64,000 nucleotides of DNA from contig JBDQOY010000194.1 of NCBI GenBank assembly GCA_040260935.1, forward strand, positions 717 to 64,716, given 5' to 3'. Below, piece by piece: positions 25,194 through 46,234 of the stretch. The position numbers were made by a program, and so were the translations under genes. The notes beneath the pieces are model-generated. The model was not told the origin of the DNA and did no database searches. It was given only the letters and a program-made list of their open reading frames with translations. Source of the DNA: Pirellulales bacterium (GTDB lineage Bacteria > Planctomycetota > Planctomycetia > Pirellulales > UBA1268). The number at the start of each line of letters is the position of its first letter. Position 1 is the stretch's first letter.

Positions 25194-25695
25194 CACTCTA
25201 TACTCCATCCGGCCTCGAGGGGTTGGCCGGGCGACACCTGCCCTGAGCCGACACTGCCTGCTCCCACCGTTCGCGTTTGCGGGAGCGACAAGGCAGCCCG
25301 AGACGCTGGCCGCCTGCCATCGATGGAAATCGACCCCGACTGAGACGGGCGTGAGTGATGCCGCGAAAGGTTGCCCCATGGCGGTTGAACCGAACGAAAC
25401 GATCGGTTCTGGCGTAGGGGTAGTGCGTGTCATGCGTCCAGCGGGTGCCCGCTGGTGAAGGGGAGTGGCGGTGTAACCCACAAAAGTGTCCAAGACATTC
25501 GGTTGGATGAGCTAGCAGGGGGCTCGCGGCCTGAGAGGCTGTTGACGCCCGGAAAACCCCGGCTACTGTTATGCAAAACGTTTGCACCTGCAAATAACTT
25601 GCGTGACTTTCGCCCGGGAGTCGGGCATACTAATCCGGGCGTTTCAGCCGTTCTTTCTGTTTTTCTTCGTTGCTCTTCGGATTGGATTGTCTGCC

Positions 25696-26643
25696 ATGAA
25701 CAAGTTTCCCGTCCAGAACCTTCGCCAGGGCCAGTCTGCCCTGCGTCCGGCCTTCACCCTCATCGAACTGTTGGTCGTCATCGCGGTCATCGGCGTCTTG
25801 GTCGGCCTGCTTTTGCCAGCCGTGCAACAGGCGCGGGAAGCCGCTCGAAGGCTGGCCTGCTCCAACAACATGAAGCAGATCGGCCTAGGCCTGCACAACT
25901 ACGCCCATGCCAATCGAGAGTATCTGCCCAAGGGCTGGATCAGCGATGCGGGCCATGAGGACGAAGGGTTGGGCTGGGGCTGGAGTGCCCAGATTCTGCC
26001 GTTCTTGGAGCAGAACGTGATCCATGACCAAATGAATTTCAGGACGAGCATTGCCTCACACGGCAGCGGTGTGAAAACGGCAGCGATTGAGACCTTCCTC
26101 TGTCCTTCCGATGTCCGGGACGGCGCCCAGACCTTTGCCATCGGTGAGGAGTCGGGCTGCGACGAGGACAGCCCCGACACCAGCGCGGCCGGTGATGTCT
26201 ATGGGCTGTCGAACTACGTCGGCGTTTTTGGTGCTGACCATATGGACCATGGTCATGGTGGCGGTGGTGGTCACACTGGCCTCGATCCGGACGATGGTGA
26301 TGGCGTTTTCTTTGCCAACAGCCGTGTCCCTTTCCGGCACATTACGGATGGCCTGAGCAAGACCATTGCTGTCGGTGAGCGGGATTCCCGGATTGGTGGG
26401 AGTACGTGGATTGGTATGATCGAAGGCAAATGCGAGGCCATGTCCCGGGTGGTAGGTGTCGGCGAACATATGTTCAATGAAGCGGATCCCCATTTCGAGG
26501 ATTTTTACAGCCAGCATCCCAATGGCATGAATGTTGTCTTTGCCGATGGGCATGTCGCCTTCCTGCCGAGTTCGATGCAGGAAGCAACCTTCCAGGCTCT
26601 CTGTACCCGCAAAGGCGGGGAGCCGGTCAGTTCTGGCTACTGA
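25696..26643 (+). CDS. DUF1559 domain-containing protein with a prepilin-type N-terminal cleavage/methylation motif
   Basis: RPAFTLIELLVVIAVIGVLVGLLLPAVQQAREAARRLACSNNMKQIGLGLHNY is the stereotyped planctomycete type II pseudopilin/DUF1559 N-terminus. The start is ATG 25696. Confidence 0.9.
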   Translation: MNKFPVQNLRQGQSALRPAFTLIELLVVIAVIGVLVGLLLPAVQQAREAARRLACSNNMKQIGLGLHNYAHANREYLPKGWISDAGHEDEGLGWGWSAQILPFLEQNVIHDQMNFRTSIASHGSGVKTAAIETFLCPSDVRDGAQTFAIGEESGCDEDSPDTSAAGDVYGLSNYVGVFGADHMDHGHGGGGGHTGLDPDDGDGVFFANSRVPFRHITDGLSKTIAVGERDSRIGGSTWIGMIEGKCEAMSRVVGVGEHMFNEADPHFEDFYSQHPNGMNVVFADGHVAFLPSSMQEATFQALCTRKGGEPVSSGY

Positions 26644-26757: not shown

Positions 26758-27978
26758 TTGAATATTGACTTGGAGTACGGCACAGCCCACCCGCTGTCAC
26801 TCGATGTTCCGGCCGGCATCCCCGTGACGATGCATCACGGCCCCGAGGCCCTTGCTGAGCCAGCTTCCAGCCTTGAGATTGCCCTCACTCGGCCCGTGGC
26901 AGGACCGCCGCTGGCCGCCCATGTGGTGCCCGGAGATCGGGTGGTCATCGCCCTGGCTGGCGATTTGCCAGGGGGGCTGCCAACGCACGAACTGGTCCAG
27001 TGCGCGGTCACCGAGCAGTTGGTTGCCGGTGGTGTCGCACCAAGCGAGGTGAGGCTGCTCACAGCGCCGCCGCTGGCCTTGCTGGGGGAGCGGCCACCGG
27101 CAGGCCGGTCGGTTGACGCGGCAACCGTGTTCAACGCTGCGATGGCTGACGAAACCGCCTACCTGCTTGCTGATGACGAGGGGACGCCCCTGCACCTGGC
27201 CCGCCCCCTGGTTGACGCCGATGTGGTCATCGCGGTGGGAGGTTTTGGCTATGATGCCGCGCTCGGCGGCCGCTCGCCCGACGGAGAACTCTGGCCCGGC
27301 TTCGGCCGGCATGAACGGCAGCAGGCGTTCACACTCGGACTCCTCCGGAAACAGCGTTCGACGCTGGAAACCTGGCGAGAACTCACCGGACAGGTCACCT
27401 TCCAACTTGGCATCATGGCCTCCCTGAGGCTGGTCCGAGGCCGCGGCAACTCACTGGCGGGCATCAGTTTTGGTCTTCCGGAGGCCACCACTGCGGCGGC
27501 CCGCCAGTTGGCCCGCCCGTGGCGGCCCGCTGCCCCGGCAAGCGATCTGACCATTGGTGGCATCGCGACGGCGAACTGCGATATGGCGGCCGTCACCCGG
27601 GCTGTTGCTGCAGCCGCGCGGACGACCCGCCCCGGAGGCACAATCTGCATCGCATGTACCCTCAGCGAGTCCCCGGGTATTGTCTTCACGCGGTGGCGGC
27701 AGGCCGCGGAACTCGTGCCTCTGATTCGCGAGGCCGCGCATTCGGGTGACGCCAGCCTGATCACCGAGGGCCTCCAGACCAAACTCTTTGCCCGAGCACT
27801 TGGCGATCGCCGCCTGGTGCTGCTGTCTGGGCTCGACCAAGACCTTGTCGAGGATCTCGACATCGGCCATGCGAGTAGTCCAGATGCCATTGAACGGCTG
27901 ATGCACCAGGCGGACTCAGTCACGTTCCTCCATGAGGCTGACCATCTCTGTCCGAGGCGGGTAGAGGGCCGGGAATAA
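26758..27978 (+). CDS. LarA-like (lactate racemase N-terminal domain, DUF2088) protein, divergent
   Basis: The N-terminus IDLEYGTAHPLSLDVPAG..ALTRPVAGPPLAAHVVPGDRVVIAL follows the LarA_N pattern. The call is made by pattern memory only. Confidence 0.45.
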   Translation: MNIDLEYGTAHPLSLDVPAGIPVTMHHGPEALAEPASSLEIALTRPVAGPPLAAHVVPGDRVVIALAGDLPGGLPTHELVQCAVTEQLVAGGVAPSEVRLLTAPPLALLGERPPAGRSVDAATVFNAAMADETAYLLADDEGTPLHLARPLVDADVVIAVGGFGYDAALGGRSPDGELWPGFGRHERQQAFTLGLLRKQRSTLETWRELTGQVTFQLGIMASLRLVRGRGNSLAGISFGLPEATTAAARQLARPWRPAAPASDLTIGGIATANCDMAAVTRAVAAAARTTRPGGTICIACTLSESPGIVFTRWRQAAELVPLIREAAHSGDASLITEGLQTKLFARALGDRRLVLLSGLDQDLVEDLDIGHASSPDAIERLMHQADSVTFLHEADHLCPRRVEGRE

Positions 27979-29134
27979 GGGGCTGCCCAGTACGGGAGTC
28001 AAGGCGGAAACCAGTTCCGGAACCTGGGCAGTCGATCACCTCGCCGACGATCGCAGTCAGTGGCAGCCCGCCCCAGTGGCGGCTGTCCCGACTGGCCGCC
28101 GGGCAATCACCCAGCACAACCACCTGCCCCGGTGGCACTGACCAGTGGCTCTGGCCGGCGGGCGGCAGCCAGTGGACATCCCTCCAGACGACCAGCCTTC
28201 GTACGGTGAGGGCCGCTGCTGCGGACGGCCCCTGGTTCTGTTGGGAGCCATCCTCAGTCAGGACCGCAGCCGCCAGGGTCAACGGAAAAACCGACGGGGC
28301 GTCACTCACTGGGCTGGACGCCTGCCAGGCTGCCGGGGCCCAAGGCGGCAGGGCCGATCGGGCGGTCCCATCGAGCCATGCAGTAAGCAGGTGGTCTGTC
28401 TCCAGGTCCTGTGCGAGCGGCCACGCTGCGGCAACGAACTGCCCGTCGAGTCGTCCGGCGACAACGGCAACCAGACCGCTGCCTCGCACAACCATCCGGG
28501 CGGTCTGGGAACCGCAGCGGAGCGTAATCGCCAGCTCATCATTTTGGAGTTCACCTACCTCGATAACTGCCGCCAGTCCAGCATCCCGTACCGGCGTAAG
28601 CCGACGCCGTTCGTCAACCAGCCAGGGTGAGTCGTCATAGATCACCGGTGTGTCGTGCGGCTGTGGCTGCCGCGTCACCTGTTGTGGATCAACGGACAGT
28701 ACATCAGAGCCGGTCGCGTTCGCCGCCTGCCAGTGCCACGTGTCATCCGCCATGCTCCAGCCAGATGCCGTCCTGCTGCGGAGGGCCGTTCCATCGCCAA
28801 TCACGGTTGCCAGTTCGGCCAGCACCTGCGGCGACTTCACCAAGAGCGTGCCATCGGCGGTCAGGTCGCCTGCCAGGCAGGCAAGATGTTCACCGGGGAA
28901 CCCCAGCACTCGCTTGACGATCTGTGGGCCCGCATCAAGTTGGCAGATGACCCGAGCATACCGGCCTGGCGTTCCCACACGAGGACTCCAGTTGACCACG
29001 TCACCATCCCGCAGTGCGGGGGCCATCGAGTGGCCCACCACCCGGGCGAACCGGCAGGTGCTGTCATGTTCCAGGCAGCCGGATAGTACCACGGCGGCAG
29101 CCAGCGAGAGGGTGATTCGCCCGGACGCTATCAC
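27920..29134 (-). CDS. S26-family signal-peptidase-I-like protein, predicted lipoprotein, with a ~250-aa insertion
   Basis: The lipobox VVLSGC lies at residues 16-20. GHSMAPAL carries the Ser nucleophile box, IVKRVLGFPGE the Lys box, and GDCPAASRDSRHWG the box E. About 250 residues lie between the Lys box and box E. Confidence 0.75.
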   Translation of the reverse strand: MIASGRITLSLAAAVVLSGCLEHDSTCRFARVVGHSMAPALRDGDVVNWSPRVGTPGRYARVICQLDAGPQIVKRVLGFPGEHLACLAGDLTADGTLLVKSPQVLAELATVIGDGTALRSRTASGWSMADDTWHWQAANATGSDVLSVDPQQVTRQPQPHDTPVIYDDSPWLVDERRRLTPVRDAGLAAVIEVGELQNDELAITLRCGSQTARMVVRGSGLVAVVAGRLDGQFVAAAWPLAQDLETDHLLTAWLDGTARSALPPWAPAAWQASSPVSDAPSVFPLTLAAAVLTEDGSQQNQGPSAAAALTVRRLVVWRDVHWLPPAGQSHWSVPPGQVVVLGDCPAASRDSRHWGGLPLTAIVGEVIDCPGSGTGFRLDSRTGQPLIPGPLPASDRDGQPHGGT

Positions 29135-29213: not shown

Positions 29214-30356
29214 TCAGTCCAACACGCCCTTGACCGGTCCCGGCTTTCGCCGCGGAGGAGGATTCGCCGGTGGAGGTGGTTTCACGCCGATCTTGTAGCC
29301 ACTAAACAGGACATGGTGATAACTCCCAGGATCACTCGGCTGCCAGCCAGCGTAAAAACCTGCTGAATCAGTCACCTTGCGGATCGCCATGTAGGCTTCG
29401 AATGAGTTTGGTTCAACGAGGTAGTTGAGATACCACTTGCCCTGATTGTTTCTTAGGACGGTCTGGAAAATCCCGCGGACAGCGTCTTGTGGCTCCTCGC
29501 CGCACTCCTCGGTGGGCTCAAGCTGCACGTTAATCCGGCTCCCATCTTTCAGTAGGATGATATCAAAATATTTGTTTTTGGCCGGATCGCTGTTGAACTC
29601 AGTAATCATCTGTTCCGCTTTTTTCGCGTCAGCAATGTAATTGCCTTCGCCCACTTGAATCCCGTTCTTTTCAATGAGGAATTTCAGGCGATCCTTAATC
29701 GCATTCTCAAGGCCCTTTCCTGGGTCGACAAATGGGATGACCTTGCCGTCTCGTACGAGCACCTTCCGCTCTTGAAGAATTTGATTGCCGTTGTTGTCAC
29801 GGGGAACATCCTTGGGCGTTGGCGGCCGAACTTCCTTGGGTGGTGGCGGCTTGGGGATCGGCGTATCTTCGAGTTTCGCGAGGATATCTTCCTTGGCGAC
29901 AATATATTTCTTTTCTTTTTCTTCCAGTTCCGCCAGTTGCCGCAGCAGTTGCTGCCGGAGCTCTTCAGCGGCCAGTTTCTTCTCCTCGGCCTCTTTTTCC
30001 TTGGCCGTCACGATCATCATGTCCTGCTTGGCCTTTTCCTCGGCGGCAGATAGCTCTTCTCTCAGCGATGCCAATAATTTCTCGGGGTCGATCTTGTCGC
30101 GATTCTCTTCCTGCTGAATGGCCTGCTGCAGTTTTTCCAGTTCTGCCTTCGCGTCCGCAGCCTGTTGATCGATCTTCTGCTGCTCAGTGGGATCGATCTT
30201 CTCGATCATCTCCTCCATCCGGCGAGCCGCCTCTTGGCTGGAGATCTGTACTGCGACCAGCACGATGACCAGAATGCCAACCACATTCGTCAAGGCATCA
30301 AGGAGGGAGTCCATGTTGCCGCCAGTTGCGGATGTCTTGCTTCGACGTCGCGCCAT
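29214..30356 (-). CDS. ExbD/TolR-like membrane anchor with a long coiled-coil and proline-rich spacer (TonB/TolA-like layout)
   Basis: MARRRSK..MDSLLDALTNVVGILVIVLVAV is a basic N-terminus followed by a single TM helix with an Asp at its cytoplasmic edge, as in ExbD/TolR/MotB. About 150 aa of Glu/Lys/Gln-rich heptad-like sequence follow, then PIPKPPPPKEVRPPTPKDVP. The C-terminal globular domain contains YLNYLVEPNSFEAYMAIRKV. The protein ends in GVLD. Confidence 0.6.
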   Translation of the reverse strand: MARRRSKTSATGGNMDSLLDALTNVVGILVIVLVAVQISSQEAARRMEEMIEKIDPTEQQKIDQQAADAKAELEKLQQAIQQEENRDKIDPEKLLASLREELSAAEEKAKQDMMIVTAKEKEAEEKKLAAEELRQQLLRQLAELEEKEKKYIVAKEDILAKLEDTPIPKPPPPKEVRPPTPKDVPRDNNGNQILQERKVLVRDGKVIPFVDPGKGLENAIKDRLKFLIEKNGIQVGEGNYIADAKKAEQMITEFNSDPAKNKYFDIILLKDGSRINVQLEPTEECGEEPQDAVRGIFQTVLRNNQGKWYLNYLVEPNSFEAYMAIRKVTDSAGFYAGWQPSDPGSYHHVLFSGYKIGVKPPPPANPPPRRKPGPVKGVLD

Positions 30357-30403: not shown

Positions 30404-31300
30404 CTAATCGAGCACAATCTGTCCCTCGCCGGGCAGCGGGGCCTTCCCGGTCAGCCCATCGAGCAAGGGGGCTCCATTGGGCAGCATGCCGATGACGAGT
30501 TTCTTTTCGTTGGCTTGTTCAAACTGATTGACCGCATTTTTGACACCACGGTAGGCATTGATGGCATCGGGCCGAATCAGGAACGTCACGATCGTGTCCC
30601 GTCGGTTGCGGAGCAACCCAGTCTGGCCAGCATGCGTCAGCACGTAGTCCAGCAGTTTTTTAAAGTCGGGGTTGTTGCCGATGTTTGCCAGCGGAATCTG
30701 TCGGGGCTTCTCGTCACCAAACAGGTTCTTGTAATCGAGTTTGTTGGGCAGCAACACGAGGGCAGAATTCGTTACCTCTGCAAAGAAGGGCCGCCGGACA
30801 CCGCCTTTGCCCTTATTCTCGTAAAGAATGGAAATGGACTGATCGGGCTTTTCCTTGCGTTTCTCAACCTCGCCCTCGATCCGCCGGATCTCCTTGACGA
30901 TCTGCTGAATCCCAAGCTCACGCTCCTTGACCTTGGCTAGGTCTTCTTTGTCAGGAGGTGGAGGCGGGGGCGGAATCTGCCGCAGCCGCTCACGGGCCTC
31001 CTGCTGCTGCTGAATCGCCTCGGCCAGTTGCTTTTCAGCTCGCTCAATTCGCTTGTCGCCGGCGATGCTCTCCCGCTTGAGTTTCTCAAGTTCCTTCTTC
31101 AGTTCCGCCACCGTCTGCAGATTCTGCTGCGTCTGCTTCTGGACCGCCTCTCGCTTCGCCTGTTCGGCGATTGGCTTAGTGTCGACCTGCTCGAGCACCA
31201 CCGCCGTGATGATCAGGATCAGATTGCCGATCACGCAGGCAAGAATGTCGAGAAAGGGGAAGAGGGAAACTTCCTGTTTCTTCTTCTCTCTACGAGCCAT
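30404..31300 (-). CDS. ExbD/TolR-like membrane anchor with a coiled-coil and polyproline spacer (paralogue of 29214-30356)
   Basis: MARREKKKQEVSLFPFLDILACVIGNLILIITAV matches the ExbD-type P-x-x-D TM motif. A coiled coil follows, then IPPPPPPPD. The C-terminal domain contains IVTFLIRPDAINAYRGVKNAV (ExbD-like v.i.aD...y..v). The protein ends in IVLD. Confidence 0.65.
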   Translation of the reverse strand: MARREKKKQEVSLFPFLDILACVIGNLILIITAVVLEQVDTKPIAEQAKREAVQKQTQQNLQTVAELKKELEKLKRESIAGDKRIERAEKQLAEAIQQQQEARERLRQIPPPPPPPDKEDLAKVKERELGIQQIVKEIRRIEGEVEKRKEKPDQSISILYENKGKGGVRRPFFAEVTNSALVLLPNKLDYKNLFGDEKPRQIPLANIGNNPDFKKLLDYVLTHAGQTGLLRNRRDTIVTFLIRPDAINAYRGVKNAVNQFEQANEKKLVIGMLPNGAPLLDGLTGKAPLPGEGQIVLD

Positions 31301-31372: not shown

Positions 31373-32983
31373 TTACGACCGATAGCGGATGTTGGAGTTT
31401 TCCTCCGTCTTTGCCTTTTTGCTACCGCCCCGGCTGAACCAGCCGCGAGACGTTGTCTCGACAGTGAGGGTCTGTCCGTTGAGACGCTCAATGGTATCGG
31501 CGAGCCCGGCTAGGCTCTGCTGCAAGGAGCCGGTGTACTCCTGCACATTGCTGGCCGCCTCGGTCATCAACTCAGCGGCCCGTCCCCGCGCCTCCTGCGC
31601 TGTCGAGGTCATGGCGGCAATCTCATCCCGGGTTGACTGCACCATCTGGCCGAGTTGCTCCACCTGGCCGGCATTCTTCTCGTAGAGCCGATCATGGACA
31701 TTGCTCCAGCCCTCTTCGACTTTGGCAGCAAGTTTTTCTCCCATGCCGTCGAGGTGGCCGACGAAATTCGACAGCGACTGCTCCGTCTGGGCAATCCGCT
31801 CGGTCTGCTTCTCATCGATCTTCTTCCACGAGTCATACAAGTCGGCTGAGACGCTTTTGCCGAGGGTCTTCAGCTGCGCACCCCAGCCCTCAAGTTCCGC
31901 CCGATGAGCCTTCAGGGCGGCATTGACAACCTCCTGCATGTCTACGCGGCTGGCCGTCGGCATTGGCTGGTCGGGCCCACCCCGGCCATCTTCCAGCCGC
32001 CGCAACAGGTATTCGTTGGTGTATTCGTCAACCTCACCAATCACATCACCTTCCAGTTTCTGGAGGGCACTGACGGGGAAGGTAAGGATCATTGCCATCG
32101 CCAGAGCGACCAGCGTCGTGTCGAACGAGGTGCCCAGGCCGCCGGTGATGTTCTTGAGGCCAGACTTGAGCGACTCCATATCGCTGGAGTTGCTCAGCGT
32201 GTCGGTAAACCCGCCGACGGCGGAACTTACACCGATAACCGTGCCAAGAAACCCAAGGATCGGAATCGCCCAGATGAAGACGTGGAACATCGTGTAACTC
32301 GAGTCGACGCTCCCGGCATCGAGATCAGACTGGCTGGAGAGCATCGTGGCGGTGTCGGCTGCGCTCTTTCGCACCCGAAAGTGTTCCAGGCCGCGGACAC
32401 AGCGGGTCACCAGGAAGCTCCCGACCGCACTCTTGGGGAGTTCGCTGATGTAGGCCAGGAACTTGTCGATGTTCCGAACCGTAATTTTCTCACCAATGTC
32501 ACTGGGCAGCACATCAAATAGCATCGCCCGCTGCTGCCGTCGGATCTTGAAGAGTTTGCTGACCAGCATGCTGGCGGCCCAGCAGAAGAGAAAGACTTCG
32601 GTGTAGGGCACCCACATACCGGTCGCCATCGAAGCGGTCTCACCACCAAAGAACAGTCGCCCAAGGTAGGAACGTTTTTCCGGGGGGCCAGCGAATGGAA
32701 GCAGGAGCAGGTAGAAGACGACGGTCGCTGCCAAGCCCACCAGAATGTAGAAGCCGACACTGACATTCGTGTTTGCCGTGACCGAGAGCACCTTTGAACG
32801 GGCCGCAGCGGAATCGCTCGCGCCCTCTGTTCCGGCAGCCTGTCCTGCGGCAAGCGGTGGTGGGGAAGGCCGCTGCACAGTGATCGACCCGCGACAGTGC
32901 GGGCAACGAGCGGTGCTGCCGACAAGCTCATCACGAACCTTGAGGCTCTTCTGGCAGTGTGGGCAAGGCATGTTGAAATACAT
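31373..32983 (-). CDS. MotA/TolQ/ExbB-family proton channel protein with an N-terminal zinc ribbon and a C-terminal helical tail
   Basis: CPHCQ..x16..CPHCRG lies at the N-terminus. Two TM helices follow, then a soluble loop. The family core follows, with AIPILGFLGTVIGV and LGTSFDTTLVALAMAMILTFPVSAL. About 190 aa of helical, heptad-like sequence then run to the C-terminus. Confidence 0.75.
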   Translation of the reverse strand: MYFNMPCPHCQKSLKVRDELVGSTARCPHCRGSITVQRPSPPPLAAGQAAGTEGASDSAAARSKVLSVTANTNVSVGFYILVGLAATVVFYLLLLPFAGPPEKRSYLGRLFFGGETASMATGMWVPYTEVFLFCWAASMLVSKLFKIRRQQRAMLFDVLPSDIGEKITVRNIDKFLAYISELPKSAVGSFLVTRCVRGLEHFRVRKSAADTATMLSSQSDLDAGSVDSSYTMFHVFIWAIPILGFLGTVIGVSSAVGGFTDTLSNSSDMESLKSGLKNITGGLGTSFDTTLVALAMAMILTFPVSALQKLEGDVIGEVDEYTNEYLLRRLEDGRGGPDQPMPTASRVDMQEVVNAALKAHRAELEGWGAQLKTLGKSVSADLYDSWKKIDEKQTERIAQTEQSLSNFVGHLDGMGEKLAAKVEEGWSNVHDRLYEKNAGQVEQLGQMVQSTRDEIAAMTSTAQEARGRAAELMTEAASNVQEYTGSLQQSLAGLADTIERLNGQTLTVETTSRGWFSRGGSKKAKTEENSNIRYRS

Positions 32984-33174
32984 AACGGCGACTTCCCTGG
33001 ACGAACTCTGGACGGAACGAAGAACGGACGCAAACCTGTGAGGGAGAGCGGCTCGGCTTGTTATGGCGACTGCCCCAGGCTGCCCTGGTTTTGACCGCCC
33101 TCTCCCACTACCGTCCGCTCAGCCTATCCCGCCTGAAACAACAAGGCAACTTCCCCGGGTGGGCATGCCGCCCA

Positions 33175-36457: not shown

Positions 36458-39400
36458 CTAGCGACTTGTGACGGGAAGGCTTTGCGACCGGGCGGAGAAT
36501 TCGGGCGCGTACCGGCTGCGAATCGTGGCAAACCCGCTGGAGGCCTTGCCGCGGTGTGCGACGCGGAGCGAATACTCAAAGACGTGGGTGCCAGGTGGCA
36601 GTCGCTCAAAGAACAACTGCGTGCTGGCATCCCGGGTCACCTGGTACCAGCCCACACCATCGCCCCACTTCCAGCCCGAAAGCACATCGACAGGCTCCGT
36701 CAGACTCGGGCGATGATCGGCCAGTTCGAGGAACTCGTAGGCCCGGTCGCTGGTCACCACCAGCCGCACCACCAATTCGTCACCCACCTCCACTGCTGTG
36801 GTAGTCGGCACCGGCTCAAGCACAGGCCCTGCCTTGGTGAAGGTTTTCTTGAACAGGGCCTTAGTGACCGCCAATTCTGTTCGGCCTGCTGCCTCGACGT
36901 TCTCTATTTGATCAAGGTACTGCCAGTGGACACCACCAAAGGCCAGTCCACCACCCGCCGGCTTCGCAAAGGTCACCTCGGCCATGGCGGGCCCGATCTC
37001 CCGCCGCACGAAGCGGGTCTCGAAAAAGCCGGTGCCCGCCTCGGGCGCGCTTGCTCCAGCCTCCCCTGGCTTGATCGATTCACCGCCCACGGTGATCGCC
37101 ATCAGGCTTTTATCACCAAGCAGATCATGGCCCCGACCCAGCAGGACGCCGACGGCATCGGCGGTGGCCTGACTGCCCGACCAGCGGCTGGTGCGCTTCT
37201 GTTGGACGAGCCATGCCTTCATCGCCTCAACCGATGCGGCATCACCGGCCACCTCATCAAAGGCCTCAATTAAAACTGACTGGGTTTCAATCGGTGCCGC
37301 CAGCCAACTCCACCAGCCGGGATGGCGCTCTCGCCACCACATGCCCTGCCAATTCTCTTCACCACGGTCAGCAGTCTGTTCGCCCCGCGGACCACCCACC
37401 GCCCGCTGCCGCAGGCTTTCGATGATCGACAAGGCGGACTCCCGCTCGCTGTTGCGAGCCAGCGCGATTGCCAGCTGCCCTTGGCTGCGGTTGTGCGAGA
37501 GCTCGGTCCAGCTCTGCCGGCCGACCTTGACACACCAGGCATGGGCGGCGGCGGCCGGTCCTTGGAGCGGCACGTCCTTGAGGAAGAAACTTCGGGCATA
37601 GAGGGCAAAGACCCCCAGCGAGGTGAGCACAGGCTCTTCTGCGAAGGCAGCGTTGCCGGCTTTGCGGGCCCGCTCAGCCCGCCGTTCAAAGAATTCCTTT
37701 TCTTCAATCAGCCGCTGATCGATCCAGGGCACTGCTGCCAAGGCAGGGGCCACATCAATTGTCACGCCATTAGCCCGCAGCCGCCCGAAGCCGGCCGCAA
37801 TCGAAAGGGTGATTGAATCGCACGATTGGCCGCCGGGGAACCAGGGCCAGCCTCCGTCGGGGTTGCGTAGTCTGTTCAGGCGAGCGATCGCTGCGGCAAT
37901 CTCGTTTTCCACCCGGGTCTTGTCGAAAAGCAGGGCGATGCGGGCTCGGGCCTCGCGTTCGTCGGTCGCCTCACGGAACCAGGGGGTTTCCGCGAGCAGG
38001 GTTTGGACGAGGTCGCTGTTCTTCTCCAGCGGGCTTTCCAAGGCGTCGGTGCCCCGCCACTGGTCGAACACCTGCGCAATCCGCGGGTCAGCGGCGACTA
38101 GGTGTCGGGCGTAGGCGTTGGCATAGAGCCGTTGGAACAGTGTGTCGATGCTTTCGCATCCCTCTTCCATCAGGTAGGGCAGGGCCATCACCGCATACCA
38201 GGCCGGGTTGGAGACTGCCTGCACGACGAGCGACTGGTTTTCGATCGTTGCCTCTGCCTGCTGTGCCATGGCAGCGAGTTTCTCAAGACGGACGTGGCGG
38301 GTTTCTCCCCCGCGAACAGTTACGGGAATCGTCTCGGTCACCAGCACCTTGCGGGGCAGGACGGGCAGCAGGGCTTCTTCGCCGTCGCTCAGCGGTCGGG
38401 CCGATCCGGTCGTGGAGCCGGTCGCCAGATAGCGGAGCACATCGGTGCCGTCGGCAACCCGAATCGTGAAGAAGACAGCCTCGCTTGCCCCCGCCGCAAG
38501 GTCGAAGGTTCGCTCGGCCGGGCCGTCAAGGAGTGCCTCACGAGAATCATTGCTGCGGGCATCAAACAGAGCCAGCCGCACCCGGCCGGTCAGCCGCCCG
38601 GTGGAACCATTACTCACCTTGACGGGGAACTGCACCACGTCGCCCTCACGAAGGAACCGCGGTGGCTGGGGCTCGACCATCAGATCCTTGGCCGTCACGC
38701 AGGTGTCGAACAGCGTGCCGCTGCGGAGCTGCTCATCATGGGCAATCGCCTTAAACTGCCAGGTGGTCAGCGTGTCGGGCAGCGTGAACTCCAGCGTCAC
38801 GGTGCCGTTGGCGTCCGAGACCAGTGCCGGTAGGAAGAAGGCCGTCTCGGCCAGGTTGCGACGCGGGGGTGGGGCGGTGGCCGCAGCGGGCTCGGCACCG
38901 GCGGCTTGCTCTTCCGCAGCCGCCTCGGGCTCGCCCGTCGCGTTTGCCGACTCTTTCATCATGGCCCCAAGAGGTATGGCATCTGCCGCCATTGCGGCGT
39001 CCTCCATCATCATTCCCTCGGCCATCGCGGGTGCCGCCATCGCTGCCATCGGCCCCCGGCGAAACATCCGTCCGCCCATCAAGCTACCCAAGCCTCCCTG
39101 CAGCGGGGAACCAAACGGAGCCCGCAGGTGGTGGTAGGAGATCGAGACGCCCTCAAACCGCCGCGCCCAGTTACCGAAGATTGGCTGCAATTGCTGGGCA
39201 ACGTTCGTGAATTGAAGCTGCCGCGAACTTGACTCCCCGGCGAAGAGCCCGAGAAAGCCCCCCGGCCAGGCATGCGGAGCGAGTGCATCGAGGGACTGGT
39301 CGTAGAGGGTCGCCACCATTTCAGCGACGGCGGGAGCCGACGGGCCCGCCAACGGATCGGCGACGGTGCGGATGGTTGCCCGCCAGATCTCCTGGGCGGC

Positions 39401-42400
39401 GGGCTCGAGTTTTCGCGTGAAGCGTTCCCAGACAACGGAGAGCTGCTTGTTGGTCCACGGCACCGCGATCGTCCGTGAGTCGTGGTGCAGGCGACCGTCC
39501 CGCACCATCCAGGCTCGAACCGTCACACCGCCACGATGGGCGTCGGTCAGTTTCAAGCGAATGGGCGTCTGGGTCCGGTTGGGTTCGGTCCAGAACCGCT
39601 CGAGCATGCGGCCTGCCTTGACCAGTTCAACCAGCATCCGCCCCTGTTCGTAGCCCGTACCGACGAGGGCCACGAGTTCACTGTCCACGTCGACCGTTGT
39701 TTTTTCTGTCCGCAGGACAAAGGCCCGCTTGATGCCATAGGTGCTTGCAGCAGGGTCGACGACCTCTATCAACCGGGTGGCCTGTACCGCAGGGCGATCC
39801 TTGCTGTTGGCCACCTCAAAGATTGCCCGGTAGATGCCTGCCGACAGGGTCGCCGTCGCGACCGCCTTGCCGGTGGCGGCGTCGGTTGTGTTGTCGGCCG
39901 CAAACACTTCCTCCCCCTCTGCCCAGGTCTCGGGGTTGGCGGGATCGGGGTCCCTCACTGCAGGATTATTGACGGGGCCCCCTGTTCGAAACGCGGGGTA
40001 CGGGACCGGGCGGCTGGTGAGATCACCGCGGCTCACGTCTGATGGCTGGACGAGCCGAACGACCCGAAGCCGCCCCGTTACTCCCCGCGGCGCTCCGTCG
40101 AGGGAGGTTGTTGTGATGGTCAGCGGCACCGCCGCCGGTTCGCCGCTGTGAGATGCCTGCCAGGCAGCCACCTCAACCGTGGCCTCAACGTCGGTATATC
40201 CTGCCGCAACGCGGCGATCAGCGGAACGAGTCTCTCCAGCAGTGTCGGTGACATCGGCGGTCACCGCATACGTAAAAACCGGCAGCGAGGCTTGTGGCAC
40301 GCTACGGTCAGGCACCGCCGGGAAATGAATGGTGAAACTGCCGTCGCCATCCGTGGTGGCCGTGCCCCGGGCAATCCGCCGGCTGCCGCTGTCGAAGGGG
40401 AGCCAGGGGTAGACCCAGCGGCACCAGATCGGAAACCGCATCTGCCGTTCAACCCGCCAGACCACCTTGGCCCCAGCAACTGCCAGCCCGGTGTAGCTGG
40501 TGGCCGTCCCTGTAAGACGAACGTCTCGGTTGAGTTGCACTGATTCAGTGGGAGCAGCCAGTTCAACCTTGAACTTCGGCCGCTTGTATTCCTCAACACG
40601 AATCGCGGTCGACCCTGATCCCCCGCTGCCTCGAGCCTGAACCGACCAGCCACCAGGCAGAGCCCCGGTTGGGATCGGGAAGCTGCCTTGGAACGAGCCG
40701 AACCGATTGGTCGTGGCAGCAAGCTTTGCGACCTCACGACGATTGGCATCTCGGAGGACGACCTCGACGCGGCCTGCTTCAATCGCCCGGGCACTGCGGC
40801 CATCGGCTGCCCGCTCAAGGAGCACCCCCTTGAACTGGACGAGTTGCCCGGGCCGGTAGATGCCGCGATCACTCATCAAGACAATCGACCGTTGGGCCTG
40901 CGGCTGGTGGCGGTGATGCCAGTAGTTCAGCGGCTCACTGAGGATCGTCTGGCTGTGACCAGCAATGCTGGCAGTGGCGACCAGGACCGCCTGGCGGCCC
41001 GTGGTGGCGGCCAGTTCATAGCGGCCCTCGGCATCGGTCTGGGTGCTGCCGGCCTTCTCGAACCGGTGCGGCCGATCTCCGTGCTGTTGCTGCTGCCAGA
41101 CGGTGACCGTTGCTCCCGCAACTGACGCACCGCTCCCGCTTTCGACGACATAGCCCGTGTGCCGGGCCTGCGGCTGCGGATGATTGGTCGTGCTGACCAG
41201 AGTCAGCCGGCTGACCCAGACAAGCGTGACTGCAACCACGTTGTCTTGGTCGCCAAAATTTTCTCGATTGCTCGCAAGCAGCCAGTAAGCCCCTGGTTCA
41301 AGTTCGGTCGCATCAAAGGCGGTGGCGACTGGAATCTGATGGATCGCTTGTCGGTAATCAACCGTCGCGGGCAAGTCAGCGACAAAGGTTTTGACTGCCG
41401 GCAGGGCCCGCAGGGCCTGAAGATCCTCGGCATCCCGCCAGTTGCCCGAAGGTTTGCCTGCGGCGAGCCGGCCCTCCCAGTCGGCTCGTGCCAGCCGCAG
41501 ATGGACCTTGGTGAGGTTGCGATAGGTCACGGTGACAGTTGGCCAGGGCGCCGCCCAGGTCCGCTCTGCCTCAAGTGAGATTTCTTTGGCTTCAATGTTT
41601 TTGATGAGGTTTCGGCACTGTTTCCCGCCAACGCTGTCGGGGTGGGCTTCGCTCCCTGCCAGGGCGATGGCTCTTGCCTCAGCCGGATCGTCTTCCCGCA
41701 GGCTGGATGCCAGATGAAACCGGGCCTGAGCCGACAACGCATGGTCTGCTGCCCGCTCGATGAAATCTCGCAGCGCTGCCTGGAGGGCTTCCTGCGGCTG
41801 GGCGGTGGCATCGGCAACAGCGACGTCGCCGGCCCAGAGCAGCCGGTCGAGATCAGTTGCCAAGAAGGCAGTGCGGTCGGCGTCATCGGCATGGAAGGCC
41901 AACAGGGCTTGATAAAGACCGGCCACAGCCAGCAGGGGCGACTCGGTATCGCTGACAGCCCCACCGCCATCTGGCCCGGCTGTCTTCCATCGGCGAAAGG
42001 CCTCAACGTCCTGGAGGGCAGGGCTTGATGCCTCAAGTTCAAACGCATCTTCAGGCTCAGCAAATCCGCGTTCCCCCATTGTGTGAAAAGCAATCGCATC
42101 ATGAACCACCACATCCCAGATGGTGGGGCGATAGGCGGCTCCCATGCTGCCCGGTTCAACCAGCATCGCCCAGTCATCGACAGGCAGTTGCTTCAGGCCA
42201 GCCTCATCAGCAAGCGCTACGGCAAACTGATGCTGAATCTCATCCACAATCTGCCGGAGATCCCACGAAGCCATCTCCGCAAGGTCGCGGTCGGCGTCTC
42301 CAGCAGCCTGGCTTGTCCGCTGGGAAAACCGCCAGCGGTTGGCCTGGAAAAAGCCCCATGTCCAGTTGGCACGAATGGCCTCGAGCACGCTGCGGGTTGG

Positions 42401-42757
42401 GACGGCGGCTGCCTTTGTCGCCGCAGCGAGGTCGATCAGCCGCTGCGGGTCATCGCCGGGCCGGTCGGCATTAGTTACCAGGACCCGCGTGGCAATTGCG
42501 CGGCCCACCTCATCCCAGGCTTCTTCGGTGGCGGCTGCCTGCTCGACGCCAGTGAGGAGTTCCCCGGCTGTCTTGGGTTTGCCCTCACGGAGCGCCTTGT
42601 CAATTTGCTTCCAAATATCTTGACGTGGAACCTGTAACTGAGCAGCGGAGGCCTGGGCCAGCAGGTTGATAAGGCTCCAAAGGCAGACGGTGAGGCCGCA
42701 GAGAAACCAGCAGTAAGCAGCGACGTTTCGCCGAAATTGAAAGGGAGAAAATGGCAT
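36458..42757 (-). CDS. alpha-2-macroglobulin-family giant protein (about 2100 aa), no canonical thioester motif seen
   Basis: The MG-domain hallmarks SDRGIYRPGQLVQFKG, VEEYKRPKFKVEL and AETAFFLPALVSDANGTVTLEFTLPDTLTTWQFKA are present. The position expected for CxEQ reads GCESID. I set the start at MPFSPFQFRR (ATG 42755-42757). The longest ORF reaches 42820. Confidence 0.85.
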   Translation of the reverse strand: MPFSPFQFRRNVAAYCWFLCGLTVCLWSLINLLAQASAAQLQVPRQDIWKQIDKALREGKPKTAGELLTGVEQAAATEEAWDEVGRAIATRVLVTNADRPGDDPQRLIDLAAATKAAAVPTRSVLEAIRANWTWGFFQANRWRFSQRTSQAAGDADRDLAEMASWDLRQIVDEIQHQFAVALADEAGLKQLPVDDWAMLVEPGSMGAAYRPTIWDVVVHDAIAFHTMGERGFAEPEDAFELEASSPALQDVEAFRRWKTAGPDGGGAVSDTESPLLAVAGLYQALLAFHADDADRTAFLATDLDRLLWAGDVAVADATAQPQEALQAALRDFIERAADHALSAQARFHLASSLREDDPAEARAIALAGSEAHPDSVGGKQCRNLIKNIEAKEISLEAERTWAAPWPTVTVTYRNLTKVHLRLARADWEGRLAAGKPSGNWRDAEDLQALRALPAVKTFVADLPATVDYRQAIHQIPVATAFDATELEPGAYWLLASNRENFGDQDNVVAVTLVWVSRLTLVSTTNHPQPQARHTGYVVESGSGASVAGATVTVWQQQQHGDRPHRFEKAGSTQTDAEGRYELAATTGRQAVLVATASIAGHSQTILSEPLNYWHHRHQPQAQRSIVLMSDRGIYRPGQLVQFKGVLLERAADGRSARAIEAGRVEVVLRDANRREVAKLAATTNRFGSFQGSFPIPTGALPGGWSVQARGSGGSGSTAIRVEEYKRPKFKVELAAPTESVQLNRDVRLTGTATSYTGLAVAGAKVVWRVERQMRFPIWCRWVYPWLPFDSGSRRIARGTATTDGDGSFTIHFPAVPDRSVPQASLPVFTYAVTADVTDTAGETRSADRRVAAGYTDVEATVEVAAWQASHSGEPAAVPLTITTTSLDGAPRGVTGRLRVVRLVQPSDVSRGDLTSRPVPYPAFRTGGPVNNPAVRDPDPANPETWAEGEEVFAADNTTDAATGKAVATATLSAGIYRAIFEVANSKDRPAVQATRLIEVVDPAASTYGIKRAFVLRTEKTTVDVDSELVALVGTGYEQGRMLVELVKAGRMLERFWTEPNRTQTPIRLKLTDAHRGGVTVRAWMVRDGRLHHDSRTIAVPWTNKQLSVVWERFTRKLEPAAQEIWRATIRTVADPLAGPSAPAVAEMVATLYDQSLDALAPHAWPGGFLGLFAGESSSRQLQFTNVAQQLQPIFGNWARRFEGVSISYHHLRAPFGSPLQGGLGSLMGGRMFRRGPMAAMAAPAMAEGMMMEDAAMAADAIPLGAMMKESANATGEPEAAAEEQAAGAEPAAATAPPPRRNLAETAFFLPALVSDANGTVTLEFTLPDTLTTWQFKAIAHDEQLRSGTLFDTCVTAKDLMVEPQPPRFLREGDVVQFPVKVSNGSTGRLTGRVRLALFDARSNDSREALLDGPAERTFDLAAGASEAVFFTIRVADGTDVLRYLATGSTTGSARPLSDGEEALLPVLPRKVLVTETIPVTVRGGETRHVRLEKLAAMAQQAEATIENQSLVVQAVSNPAWYAVMALPYLMEEGCESIDTLFQRLYANAYARHLVAADPRIAQVFDQWRGTDALESPLEKNSDLVQTLLAETPWFREATDEREARARIALLFDKTRVENEIAAAIARLNRLRNPDGGWPWFPGGQSCDSITLSIAAGFGRLRANGVTIDVAPALAAVPWIDQRLIEEKEFFERRAERARKAGNAAFAEEPVLTSLGVFALYARSFFLKDVPLQGPAAAAHAWCVKVGRQSWTELSHNRSQGQLAIALARNSERESALSIIESLRQRAVGGPRGEQTADRGEENWQGMWWRERHPGWWSWLAAPIETQSVLIEAFDEVAGDAASVEAMKAWLVQQKRTSRWSGSQATADAVGVLLGRGHDLLGDKSLMAITVGGESIKPGEAGASAPEAGTGFFETRFVRREIGPAMAEVTFAKPAGGGLAFGGVHWQYLDQIENVEAAGRTELAVTKALFKKTFTKAGPVLEPVPTTTAVEVGDELVVRLVVTSDRAYEFLELADHRPSLTEPVDVLSGWKWGDGVGWYQVTRDASTQLFFERLPPGTHVFEYSLRVAHRGKASSGFATIRSRYAPEFSARSQSLPVTSR

Positions 42758-43006
42758 GGTGAAGGCCCCAGTGTGGAAGAAAACGCTGAATTGGCGAACG
42801 AACGCTGAAAACGCCGTCACAACACATCTCTGCGGTCGGTTAACGCTGCCGATTGGTTGCCGTTACAGGAAAAGTAGGTAAGAATTAAGAAGTCAGAAAA
42901 CTTCCCGCCGATCGATCCTCGCTCTTCGTAGGGTCCGCGTTTCTGGGCCGGCTGCCTGGAAACGGCGACGTGGGTGTTCCCAACCAGACTCTTAGGAGTT
43001 TCGTCC

Positions 43007-46000: not shown

Positions 46001-46234
46001 GTTGACTTCATTGCCAGCCGGCTGATCGCACGGCCACTGGGGCCGGCTGAGAAGACAATCGTGAAGAAGTCACTGGCGAATCTCTCGGCGTGGTACAAGG
46101 CTCACCCCAACGATGCCAAGGCAGTGATTGCGGTGGGACAGTCGGCACCGCGGCATGATGATGCCGTGCTGCTGGCCAGTTGGACGATGCTGACCAATGA
46201 ATTGATGAACCTCGACGAAGTCCTCTGCAAATAG
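43007..46234 (+). CDS. PSCyt/DUF1549/DUF1553 (PSD1) protein with an inserted LamG/concanavalin-like domain
   Basis: CFSCHGADSASREADLRLD and CAVCHDHKFDP are present. The central segment FSVSCWVNV..WTLVTVTYDG..IYYDGKL..LTIWGRSLSAAEV is LamG-like. ATG 43007 has AGGAG 8 nt upstream. The ORF track starts at GTG 42974. Confidence 0.85.
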   Translation: MEPSPLRPWSRLPRWLSWCIAGGGIAVCQLGLPTAVPAADAPLSYNEHIRPILVENCFSCHGADSASREADLRLDRRDDAIEYGAIVPGDPDSTVMLDRVYADDPDEVMPPPETKKTLSAEQKALLTRWVKEGAEYEPHWSFIPPTRPPLPEVQKTDWVRNPIDQFILARLEADGLAPAAEADRRTLARRVAFELTGLPPDPTLVEAFVLDPHADAYERLVDTLLASLEWGEHRGRHWLDYARYADTHGIHFDNYREMWTYRQWVINAFNRNMPFDEFTILQLAGDLVADHGPNATPDQILDNKIASGFNRCNMTTNEGGIIDEEYLVLYARDRTETTAQVFMGLTAGCAVCHDHKFDPLSQREFYELSAFFNNTTQRARDGNVFNTPPILPVPLAADRPRFRALQQELPAARQAVATRKRTARPDFEIWVTKATMADIATALPQDTPLVQVALSEGEGASTKASLLGKQTDLPLTSTTTWQAGPSGKPAALLDGRALELPGQADLEHDQPFSVSCWVNVPAVDSMYALVSKMDEGQAHRGWDVWVEGRRVGMHLIHSWPENALKVVAGDQLKANTWTLVTVTYDGSGTAAGVKIYYDGKLQTKPRVANNKFKKETTRTEVPLVVGGRSTGADAHAVGLTDLTIWGRSLSAAEVEGVSRADAIADIVALPADQRVAAAKGLYDWWLGSFDDAFQQAAAHEAALAAEEAKITRRGTIAHVMQEKPEMPKAYILDRGEYDRRLDEVGANTPEMLPAFPEALPRNRLGLAQWLLLQDHPLTTRVTVNRFWQEVFGTGLVRTSGDFGVTGELPSHPDLLDWLAVEFRESGWDVKRLFRLFVTSAAYRQAAATTPDKLTKDRDNRLLSRGPRYRMDAEMVRDTALAASGLLVRKIGGPSVKPYQPPGVWSAVAMPESDTKKYTASAGADLYRRSMYWFWKRSAPPTSMDILNAPSREVCTVQRERTNTPLQALVTLNDPQFVEAARVLADEALFLGGESDDARVDFIASRLIARPLGPAEKTIVKKSLANLSAWYKAHPNDAKAVIAVGQSAPRHDDAVLLASWTMLTNELMNLDEVLCK

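Follow-up and report, generated by a model that had tools for sequence, protein, structure and literature searches.

A conserved ExbB-like protein of Planctomycetota with a zinc ribbon and a helical tail, and its two candidate axle partners

Does a membrane protein that joins a MotA/ExbB channel core to a zinc ribbon at one end and a long helical tail at the other belong to one of the known ion-driven motors, or to a different one? The question is raised by a gene, here called gene A, in a 64,000-nucleotide stretch of DNA from a Pirellulales bacterium (GenBank assembly GCA_040260935.1, contig JBDQOY010000194.1), which we refer to as the window. Two further genes, B1 and B2, lie directly downstream of it. 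We propose, at a probability of roughly 0.6, that A, B1, and B2 form one membrane machine and represent a previously uncharacterized family of the MotA/ExbB/TolQ "5:2" ion-driven motors. Several such motors, namely MotAB, ExbBD, TolQR, GldLM, and ZorAB, are understood in some detail, and each turns ion flow into work in a different way.

Gene A corresponds exactly to one minus-strand open reading frame (ORF) at 31373 to 32983, encoding 536 amino acids (aa; the stop codon is included in the coordinates), and the plus-strand frame over the same span is riddled with stops. An earlier note, made from the sequence of the window, had described the product as a zinc ribbon, a Pro/Ala linker, four transmembrane (TM) helices with a MotA/ExbB core, and a tail of about 190 aa. 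This outline was borne out by the ORF, by Pfam (PF01618), by an alignment of 57 homologs, and by an AlphaFold2 (AF2) model built on that alignment, which had a mean predicted local distance difference test (pLDDT) score of 74. The N terminus quoted in the note needs correction, since the true start lies four codons upstream. The protein begins MYFNMPCPHCQ, and the start M[YF]F was kept in 57 of the 57 aligned homologs.

The zinc ribbon (aa 1 to 37; 32873 to 32983, minus strand, as are all segments of gene A given below) was recognized from its cysteines, from modeled strands, and from subthreshold matches to hidden Markov models (HMMs). C7, C10, C27, and C30 are conserved in at least 90% of the aligned homologs, and the model has four short strands here with a pLDDT of about 90. 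The matches were to PF13717 (15.8 bits against a cutoff of 30.3) and TIGR02098 (14.7 against 20.9). A CxxC...CxxC pattern lies inside the first 70 residues of 105 of the 149 best family representatives. The Pro/Ala-rich linker that follows (aa 38 to 75; 32759 to 32872) differs in length among homologs, is gap-rich and variable in the alignment, and has a pLDDT below 50 at aa 43 to 56 and 65 to 69.

The first membrane helix, TM1 (aa 76 to 98; 32690 to 32758), is an extra helix with a Kyte-Doolittle hydropathy of 2.47, and the model places a helix over the same residues. TM2 (aa 124 to 146; 32546 to 32614; AF2 helix 124 to 153) is followed by the invariant basic motif KIRRQQR, and K143, K146, I147, R148, and Q150 are invariant in the alignment. 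A cytoplasmic loop (aa 147 to 233; 32285 to 32545) with AF2 helices at 172 to 205 carries the near-invariant block GSFLVTRCxRGLEHFRVRKSAxDTATML. It leads into the channel core (aa 234 to 307; 32063 to 32284), in which hydropathy and the model place TM3 at aa 234 to 257 and TM4 at aa 283 to 307, with a periplasmic loop between them. The core reads FHVFIWAIPILGFLGTVIGVS ... FDTTLVALxMAMILTFP, with nearly all residues invariant, and PF01618 (MotA_ExbB) matches aa 199 to 307 at 30.8 bits (cutoff, 22.9). Among the threonines, T248 does not vary and T289/T290 are conserved to at least 90%; T248 fell opposite TolQ T145 and T290 opposite TolQ T178 in a low-confidence alignment with an hhalign probability of only 3%. 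TM4 is continued by a cytoplasmic extension and a Gly-rich hinge (aa 308 to 345; 31949 to 32062), which bear the conserved motif LQKxEGD..VDEYTNExLLRRLxDGR and have a pLDDT below 50 at aa 338 to 345.

Foldseek placed the modeled core nearest to ExbB (6ye4, 5sv0, and 9ddo; E values of 1.2e-4 to 9e-4 and TM-scores on the target of 0.53 to 0.62), then to TolQ, and then to MotA/PomA (TM-score of about 0.4); no ZorA chain was among the top 50 matches. ExbB has three TM helices and a periplasmic N terminus. On the AF2 model, the core of gene A is an ExbB-type three-TM core with one extra N-terminal TM helix, rather than MotA-like, so that of the MotA-like four-TM topology put forward in the earlier note, the four helices stand and the likeness to MotA does not. 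Because TM1 adds one membrane pass to an ExbB-type N-out core, the zinc ribbon should be cytoplasmic, and the KIRRQQR motif after TM2 agrees with this. The tail is placed after TM4 and should therefore be cytoplasmic too, which supports the topology that the note had proposed. The ExbB, TolQ, and MotA chains that were matched are about 210 to 250 residues long and align to the core over about 215 to 285 columns. They therefore have no room for a zinc ribbon or a tail, and the claim that the canonical proteins lack both appendages is upheld.

The tail, about 190 aa in total, consists of a helical part (aa 346 to 500; 31484 to 31948) and a tip (aa 501 to 536; 31376 to 31483). Two long helices were modeled, at 346 to 436 and 441 to 500 (pLDDT of 55 to 77), and residues 504 to 536 were of low confidence; the tail is therefore helical and not disordered, a possibility that the note had allowed for. 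The helices carry W-bearing repeats of about 40 aa, with W367 and W426 invariant. The note had called the tail heptad-like and helical, and only the second word survives: the hydrophobic period is 3.64 residues (power of 140 against 40 ± 11 in shuffles), a period of 3.50 is at noise level, and the tail is hendecad-like. A period of 3.62 to 3.64 stays in phase across 545 to 700 residues of the long family members (power of 268 to 447 against about 45 in shuffles), and a strongly amphipathic tail is common to short and long members.

In the best 149 family representatives, TM4 and the C terminus are separated by about 60 to about 760 residues (median, about 200). The long tails are Q/A/E-rich helical repeats with the same W-x18-W unit that is present once or twice in the window protein, and the copy number of the repeat differs among homologs. 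Across the family, tail length thus differs more than tenfold, while the sizes of B1 and B2 stay constant. The tip has the motif L..L.G(K)Q..V.. and then an aromatic-basic peptide (SRGWFSRGGSKKAK...), usually preceded by a G(K)QVV(I/V)(E/Q)-like motif. The peptide is GWFSRGGSKKAK in the window protein and, for example, RRGWFGRRK, RSWWPFG, or KWRLWGKKG in other members. Aromatic and basic residues were found together within the last 25 aa of 109 of 116 family representatives, compared with 6 of 116 in a control window. An aromatic-basic C terminus is typical of membrane-targeting peptides. The tip peptide was kept whatever the length of the tail, and it resembles a membrane-targeting or partner-binding peptide.

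The earlier note had left B1 and B2 unlinked to gene A, and their Asp-bearing trans-pore helices are the key to the mechanism that we propose. B1 (30404 to 31300, minus strand; 298 aa) is separated from gene A by 72 bp, and B2 (29214 to 30356, minus strand; 380 aa) is separated from B1 by 47 bp. B1 has a basic N terminus and one TM helix (aa 14 to 38) with an invariant D18 (SLFPFLDIL). B2 likewise has one TM helix, with invariant D16 and D20 (MDSxLDxLxNVVGIL). The Asp-bearing, very hydrophobic helix motifs are SLFPFLDILACVIG in B1 and MDSLLDALTNVVGIL in B2. A BLASTP comparison of B1 with B2 was not significant. Their family profiles are colinear over the whole length (hhalign probability of 98%, E value of 2e-13), and the two are therefore old paralogs. 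B1 D18 falls on B2 D20 in the joint alignment, and both residues are invariant.

Beyond the membrane helix, the AF2 model of B1 (pLDDT of 68) has helices at aa 41 to 77, 83 to 107, and 118 to 149, with a poly-Pro break, and an alpha/beta domain at aa 170 to 263. The order of elements in this predicted domain, beta-beta-beta-alpha-beta-alpha, is compatible with the ExbD/TolR periplasmic domain and not diagnostic of it. A PLPGxG motif is conserved near the C terminus of B1. B2 has a long helical segment, a Pro-rich conserved PPxKEVRxPxP motif, a C-terminal domain larger than that of B1, and a Pro-rich end. The last residue of B2 (codon 29214 to 29216, minus strand) is an invariant Asp (...VLD, ...LVD, or ...LID) that follows a Pro-rich stretch. 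B1 likewise ends in ...LD in the close relatives of the window, and the terminal Asp may be a recognition motif.

A joint N-terminal profile of B1 and B2 matched a combined ExbD and TolR profile with an hhalign probability of 61% (E value of 8e-5), the Asp aligning with ExbD D25 and TolR D23; this moderate match is confined to the TM helix, and the ExbD and TolR profile is of low diversity, drawn from Enterobacteriaceae only. PF02472 (ExbD) scored below threshold in 15 of 63 B1 proteins (best, 16.9 bits against a cutoff of 25.4) and was absent from 17 of 17 B2 proteins. The B1 and B2 profiles gave no significant hhalign match to single E. coli ExbD and TolR sequences; the ExbD sequence used is 99% identical to the database entry, and TolR entries are the top matches of the TolR sequence used. 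For the C-terminal parts of B1 and B2 there was no Pfam match, and neither protein had a peptidoglycan-binding match above threshold in Pfam, of the OmpA type or any other. Profiles of B1, B2, and their N termini retrieved only coiled-coil or G protein-coupled receptor noise from PDB sequences. Profile-profile comparison of the periplasmic parts with ExbD/TolR gave probabilities of 12% and 2%, which is no signal, and Foldseek found no match for the B1 model. B1 and B2 look like axle subunits with new periplasmic parts.

We surveyed one genome per species of the Genome Taxonomy Database (GTDB). Gene order was read from tblastn and all-against-all ORF clustering. The 43 loci found all come from metagenome-assembled genomes (MAGs), most of them labeled Planctomycetota or Pirellulales; a few third-party MAG labels ("Kuenenia" and "Chitinophagaceae") were not trusted. 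The order A-B1-B2 was kept wherever the contig reaches far enough, including loci in which A is only 46 to 50% identical to the window protein. The exceptions are four low-quality loci (L014, L037, L045, and L046) with split, truncated, or undetected B genes. B1 taken by itself adjoins A on every contig that reaches into it, apart from L037. Split B1 or B2 ORFs were seen in L045 (10327 to 11438), L046 (9352 to 10395), L014 (5261 to 6161), and L037, and the near-identical locus L044 is intact; the splits are probably frameshift errors or occasional pseudogenes.

A, B1, and B2 are the only genes conserved across the loci. Other neighbors, such as an S26-like peptidase, a LarN-like protein, a GFO/IDH/MocA oxidoreductase, and a xylose-isomerase-like protein, are common to close relatives only. 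On the contig whose A is 46% identical, A (509 aa) is followed by proteins of 258 and 375 aa amid unrelated housekeeping genes. Downstream of a 905-aa A from a Verrucomicrobiota MAG (MBM3875435.1), proteins of 261 and 371 aa matched the B1 and B2 profiles with hhalign probabilities of 99.7% and 99.9%, respectively, and a 1033-aa A precedes proteins of 246 and 340 aa.

A word-indexed database search with gene A returned 532 or more homologs at 46 to 97% identity, a number that excludes chance. Among the 120 listed, nearly all are full length, a few are fragments covering 60 to 79% of the query, and all but two have PF01618. When 1.84 billion representatives were searched with the gene A profile, 542 clusters (at 50% identity) were found at an E value of at most 1e-30 and 2101 at an E value of at most 1e-10. 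The architecture is not rare, and the length of its tail is very variable. The family, common in Planctomycetota, extends to at least one Verrucomicrobiota MAG and so to two phyla of the Planctomycetota-Verrucomicrobiota-Chlamydiota (PVC) group. It is not a characterized ExbB with a known TonB partner, an outcome that the note had considered. NCBI gives homologs the generic name "MotA/TolQ/ExbB proton channel family protein" and other entries read "hypothetical." JGI often names them "DNA-directed RNA polymerase subunit RPC12/RpoP" or "phage FluMu protein Com," misleading names that evidently stem from the N-terminal zinc ribbon alone.

In the literature searched, we found no paper describing the gene A architecture. 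Passages of a 2025 phylogenetic and structural survey of MotAB relatives report diverse N- and C-terminal extensions among "generic ion transporters," and the gene A architecture is not described in those passages (PMC12505986). The gene A family is thus real, conserved, and apparently undescribed, inside a known superfamily.

By analogy with ExbBD, TolQR, MotAB, and ZorAB, we envisage a machine in which five A subunits would form a ring and one B1 and one B2 would put their N-terminal helices in its center. B1 D18 and B2 D20 would then face the conserved, Thr-containing TM3 and TM4 of A. Flow of protons or other ions via this Asp/Thr site would drive relative rotation of ring and axle. In the periplasm, the helical, partly Pro-rich segments of B1 and B2, together with their family-specific alpha/beta domain, may serve as a stalk to the wall or the outer membrane, and B1 and B2 would thereby unite roles that are split between TolR and TolA or between ExbD and TonB. 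On the cytoplasmic side, the zinc ribbon on its flexible linker, the variable amphipathic tail, and the conserved tip could dock or move a cytoplasmic or membrane-surface partner. The architecture, the family, the linkage of the three genes, the conserved Asp, the nearly invariant TM3 and TM4, the ExbB-like fold, and the properties of the tail are observed; the stoichiometry, the rotation, the direction of work, and the cellular function are proposed.

Several points weigh against this proposal. At an E value of at most 1, the gene A family profile retrieved no ExbB, TolQ, MotA, or ZorA from PDB sequences, so superfamily membership rests on one 30.8-bit Pfam match and on the fold likeness of a model with a pLDDT of 74. 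The link of B1 and B2 to ExbD/TolR is moderate at best as judged from sequence, because it lies in one helix and the periplasmic parts show no likeness. The 5:2 stoichiometry and the B1/B2 heterodimer are assumptions made by analogy, although the strict linkage of the three genes lends indirect support to a complex. The Gly-rich hinge between TM4 and the tail was modeled with low confidence, and the five tails therefore need not make one bundle. Finally, nothing in the analysis points to what the machine would act on.

A machine with one TolQ-like and two different TolR-like proteins has precedents. In AglRQS of Myxococcus gliding motility, a TolQ-like gene is paired with two different TolR-like genes. 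This set, compared here by description only, shares with A-B1-B2 the implied heterodimeric axle. The same Agl-Glt machine, which is of the TolQR type, contains GltJ, a membrane protein whose N-terminal four-Cys zinc ribbon (C5, C8, C28, and C31) sits on a flexible linker and binds cytoplasmic regulators; the zinc ribbons of GltJ and ZitP are protein-protein interaction modules on membrane proteins (PMC11135422). The zinc ribbon of gene A resembles theirs in position, in Cys spacing, and in the flexible linker that follows. Since its HMM scores are below threshold, we treat this likeness as a lead and make no claim of membership. Agl-Glt also differs from A-B1-B2, whose TolQ-like subunit carries the zinc ribbon on the same polypeptide, whose B1 and B2 far exceed AglQ and AglS in size, and which has no linked glt genes.

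A second precedent comes from a 2025 survey that describes PVC gene clusters encoding a tetratricopeptide repeat protein, a TolQ-like protein, two TolR-like proteins, and a von Willebrand factor A (vWA) protein, as well as, next to tolQ-like genes, heterologous pairs of vWA proteins that bear TolR-like trans-pore helices and are proposed to be axle and direct force transducers at once (PMC12204202). Like B1 and B2, these pairs are two different single-pass proteins with a TolR-like Asp helix beside a tolQ-like gene. B1 and B2 differ from them in having no vWA domains, and no zinc ribbon or tail has been reported for the TolQ-like proteins concerned. The survey is therefore a precedent for heterologous axle-plus-transducer proteins and not for the A-B1-B2 family. 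GldL-GldM is a more distant parallel, again by description only (PMC9389320): its A-type subunit has a cytoplasmic C-terminal extension and its B-type subunit a long periplasmic output structure, but GldL has two TM helices, and GldM is a homodimer of Ig-like domains without a TM Asp.

The A-B1-B2 machine would thus unite features that are separate elsewhere: an ExbB-like ring, two unlike axle proteins, each with an Asp and a long periplasmic stalk, a regulator-recruiting type of zinc ribbon, and a ZorA-style variable tail with a conserved tip. Because the module stands amid housekeeping genes and is vertically inherited, its role would lie in a core cell-envelope or cell-biological function of PVC bacteria, and not in phage defense. 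A bolder version of the proposal, which we think unlikely as a whole and offer tentatively, is that the module is a vertically inherited, nondefense, "tailed" 5:2 rotary motor. B1 and B2 would be a heterodimeric, stalked stator fixed in the envelope, and the rotating ring of five A subunits would drive the tail of 60 to 760 residues with its conserved tip, coupling the envelope mechanically to a cytoplasmic or membrane-surface partner in the core cell biology of Planctomycetota and their relatives. If this were true, candidate roles would include membrane remodeling, budding or FtsZ-independent division, and envelope surveillance, and the motor would be a housekeeping counterpart, possibly the evolutionary source, of a tail principle so far known only from Zorya.

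The cell biology of Planctomycetota is poorly understood; it includes an enlarged periplasm, membrane invaginations, budding, and, in many members, division without FtsZ. For genetics in tractable planctomycetes, A-B1-B2 is a defined target of three genes, and the natural series of tail lengths in the family is a means of testing what such tails do. The main texts of transposon sequencing (Tn-seq) papers on Planctopirus limnophila and Verrucomicrobium spinosum mention no MotA, ExbB, or TolQ. Two or more "MotA/TolQ/ExbB" genes, among them Plim_0746 and Plim_2583, appear in the supplement on P. limnophila; these two are nonessential there and may or may not be orthologs of gene A.

The same complex could also work without a projecting tail. 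The tail may instead, as an amphipathic helix of the apolipoprotein kind, lie along or fold back to the cytoplasmic face of the membrane, with the aromatic-basic tip as an anchor and no pentameric bundle. The period of 3.64 is near the 11/3 spacing of 11-mer amphipathic repeats, the family profile has a single match among PDB sequences, to apolipoprotein A-IV in the tail (E value of 0.0089), and the Pfam Apolipoprotein family also matches (E value of 0.008). A break at aa 437 to 440, between the two modeled helices, could allow a hairpin that returns the tip to the membrane, and the conserved aromatic-basic C terminus is of a type common in membrane-targeting peptides. The apolipoprotein matches, however, are weak and sensitive to composition, and the in-phase period over 545 to 700 residues also fits a long straight bundle. 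We regard a membrane-lying tail as unlikely, too, though it would leave the proposed A-B1-B2 complex otherwise as it is.

A conventional Ton/Tol-type system is a less probable reading and, in our view, a rather doubtful one. Here B1 and B2 would be two ExbD/TolR proteins, as in ExbB-ExbD-ExbD operons, TonB or TolA would be encoded elsewhere, and the zinc ribbon and tail would be accessories. Much is indeed shared with ExbB-ExbD and TolQ-TolR: A has PF01618, has these proteins as its nearest predicted fold (ExbB, then TolQ), has a three-TM core with a long cytoplasmic helical loop, and conserves the GTV motif of the penultimate TM helix, and B1 and B2 resemble ExbD/TolR in a basic N terminus, one TM helix with an essential-type Asp, and a position directly downstream. 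The weak ExbD and TolR HMM matches on the B1 N terminus point the same way, the Pro-rich segments of B2 recall TonB, and one JGI record labels a B1 homolog "TonB." Against this, A adds an N-terminal TM helix, a zinc ribbon, and a long tail, and its profile retrieves neither ExbB nor TolQ from PDB sequences. B1 and B2 are unlike partners, two to three times the length of ExbD and with long helical inserts, and their periplasmic parts are unlike the ExbD/TolR domain by Pfam, PDB sequence profiles, profile-profile comparison, and Foldseek. In no locus is a gene for TonB, TolA, TolB, or Pal linked. That the zinc ribbon, tail, and tip motif are conserved means that they are not decorative.

The comparison with Zorya deserves care, since a long tail is what prompted it. 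In ZorA, the last TM helix runs on into a pentameric coiled-coil tail about 70 nm long, ZorB has a peptidoglycan-binding domain, and Zorya systems have linked effectors (PMC11946911). A and ZorA share a long cytoplasmic alpha-helical C-terminal tail of lineage-variable length, the ZorA hallmark (PMC11946911), with a hydrophobic period above 3.6, which would fit a right-handed supercoil such as has been proposed for ZorA, and with a tip that is likely to be functionally important. PADLOC matched gene A to ZorA1 (E value of 3.6e-7, 27 bits) and ZorA3 (E value of 4.5e-6). These matches are weak and come partly through helical low-complexity sequence; the unrelated periplasmic helical segment of B2 reaches a similar ZorA3 score (4.7e-5), so they reflect composition. 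The NCBIfam model antiphage_ZorA_1 (NF033914) scored 13.8 bits against a cutoff of 190. PADLOC found no ZorC, ZorD, or ZorE in the four proteins scanned (A, B1, B2, and the S26-like protein), and an OmpA-type peptidoglycan-binding domain was found neither in these four with PADLOC and NCBIfam nor in eight proteins with Pfam, so the earlier note was right to hold the gene apart from Zorya. The S26-like protein was the one neighbor outside the module in the PADLOC scan, and it had no match to any Zorya effector, whether ZorC, ZorD, ZorE, ZorF, or ZorG. A further difference is that the hinge, of low confidence in the model, parts TM4 from the tail, and the paired B proteins are heterologous.

The context is also wrong for a defense island. 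The window neighbors of the module are ordinary chromosomal genes, encoding a GFO/IDH/MocA oxidoreductase, a xylose-isomerase-like protein, pyruvate phosphate dikinase (PPDK), PSCyt/PSD1 proteins paired with DUF1501, a sulfatase, and an alpha-2-macroglobulin, as on an ordinary planctomycete chromosome. With its housekeeping flanks, its synteny in close relatives, and its retention over the sampled Planctomycetota loci and the Verrucomicrobiota MAG, the module is distributed as a core gene set would be. A divergent Zorya-like anti-phage sensor, in which A would be a short-tailed ZorA, B1 and B2 would replace ZorB, and effectors would be encoded elsewhere, is therefore very unlikely, all the more as ExbB and TolQ, and no ZorA, are among the top 50 fold matches. 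We do not file A-B1-B2 under Zorya, although the tail principle may be shared.

A scan for sigma-70-like promoter sites found none. It counted 8 terminator-like hairpins against 4.8 ± 2.4 expected, with none on the minus strand between A, B1, and B2 and one, at 33142 to 33157, downstream of the GFO gene that lies upstream of the module. Downstream of B2, at a distance of 79 bp, a 404-aa signal-peptidase-I-like (S26-like) protein is encoded at 27920 to 29134 on the minus strand. Its S26 match is split between aa 25 to 97 and about 306 to 367, with an insert of about 200 aa. The S26-like gene adjoins B2 in close relatives only and diverges much faster than the genes around it, with 77% identity in locus L001 (where A is 97% identical) and 30 to 46% where A is about 80% identical. 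It converges with a LarN-like ORF on the plus strand (26758 to 27978), and the 3' ends of the two overlap by 59 bp.

Farther away in the window, a bacterial alpha-2-macroglobulin-like protein of 2120 aa (36458 to 42820, minus strand) has MG2, A2M, and bMG10 domains and an N-terminal TM or signal region. Two planctomycete-typical PSCyt1/PSCyt2/PSD1 sets lie at 42974 to 46234 with 46256 to 47752 (both plus strand) and at 17698 to 20301 (minus strand), one of them followed by DUF1501. Such genes confirm that the DNA is a Planctomycetota chromosome. The window also encodes a DUF1559/N-methyl (type IV pilin-like) protein at 25582 to 26643 and a sulfatase at 48119 to 49546.

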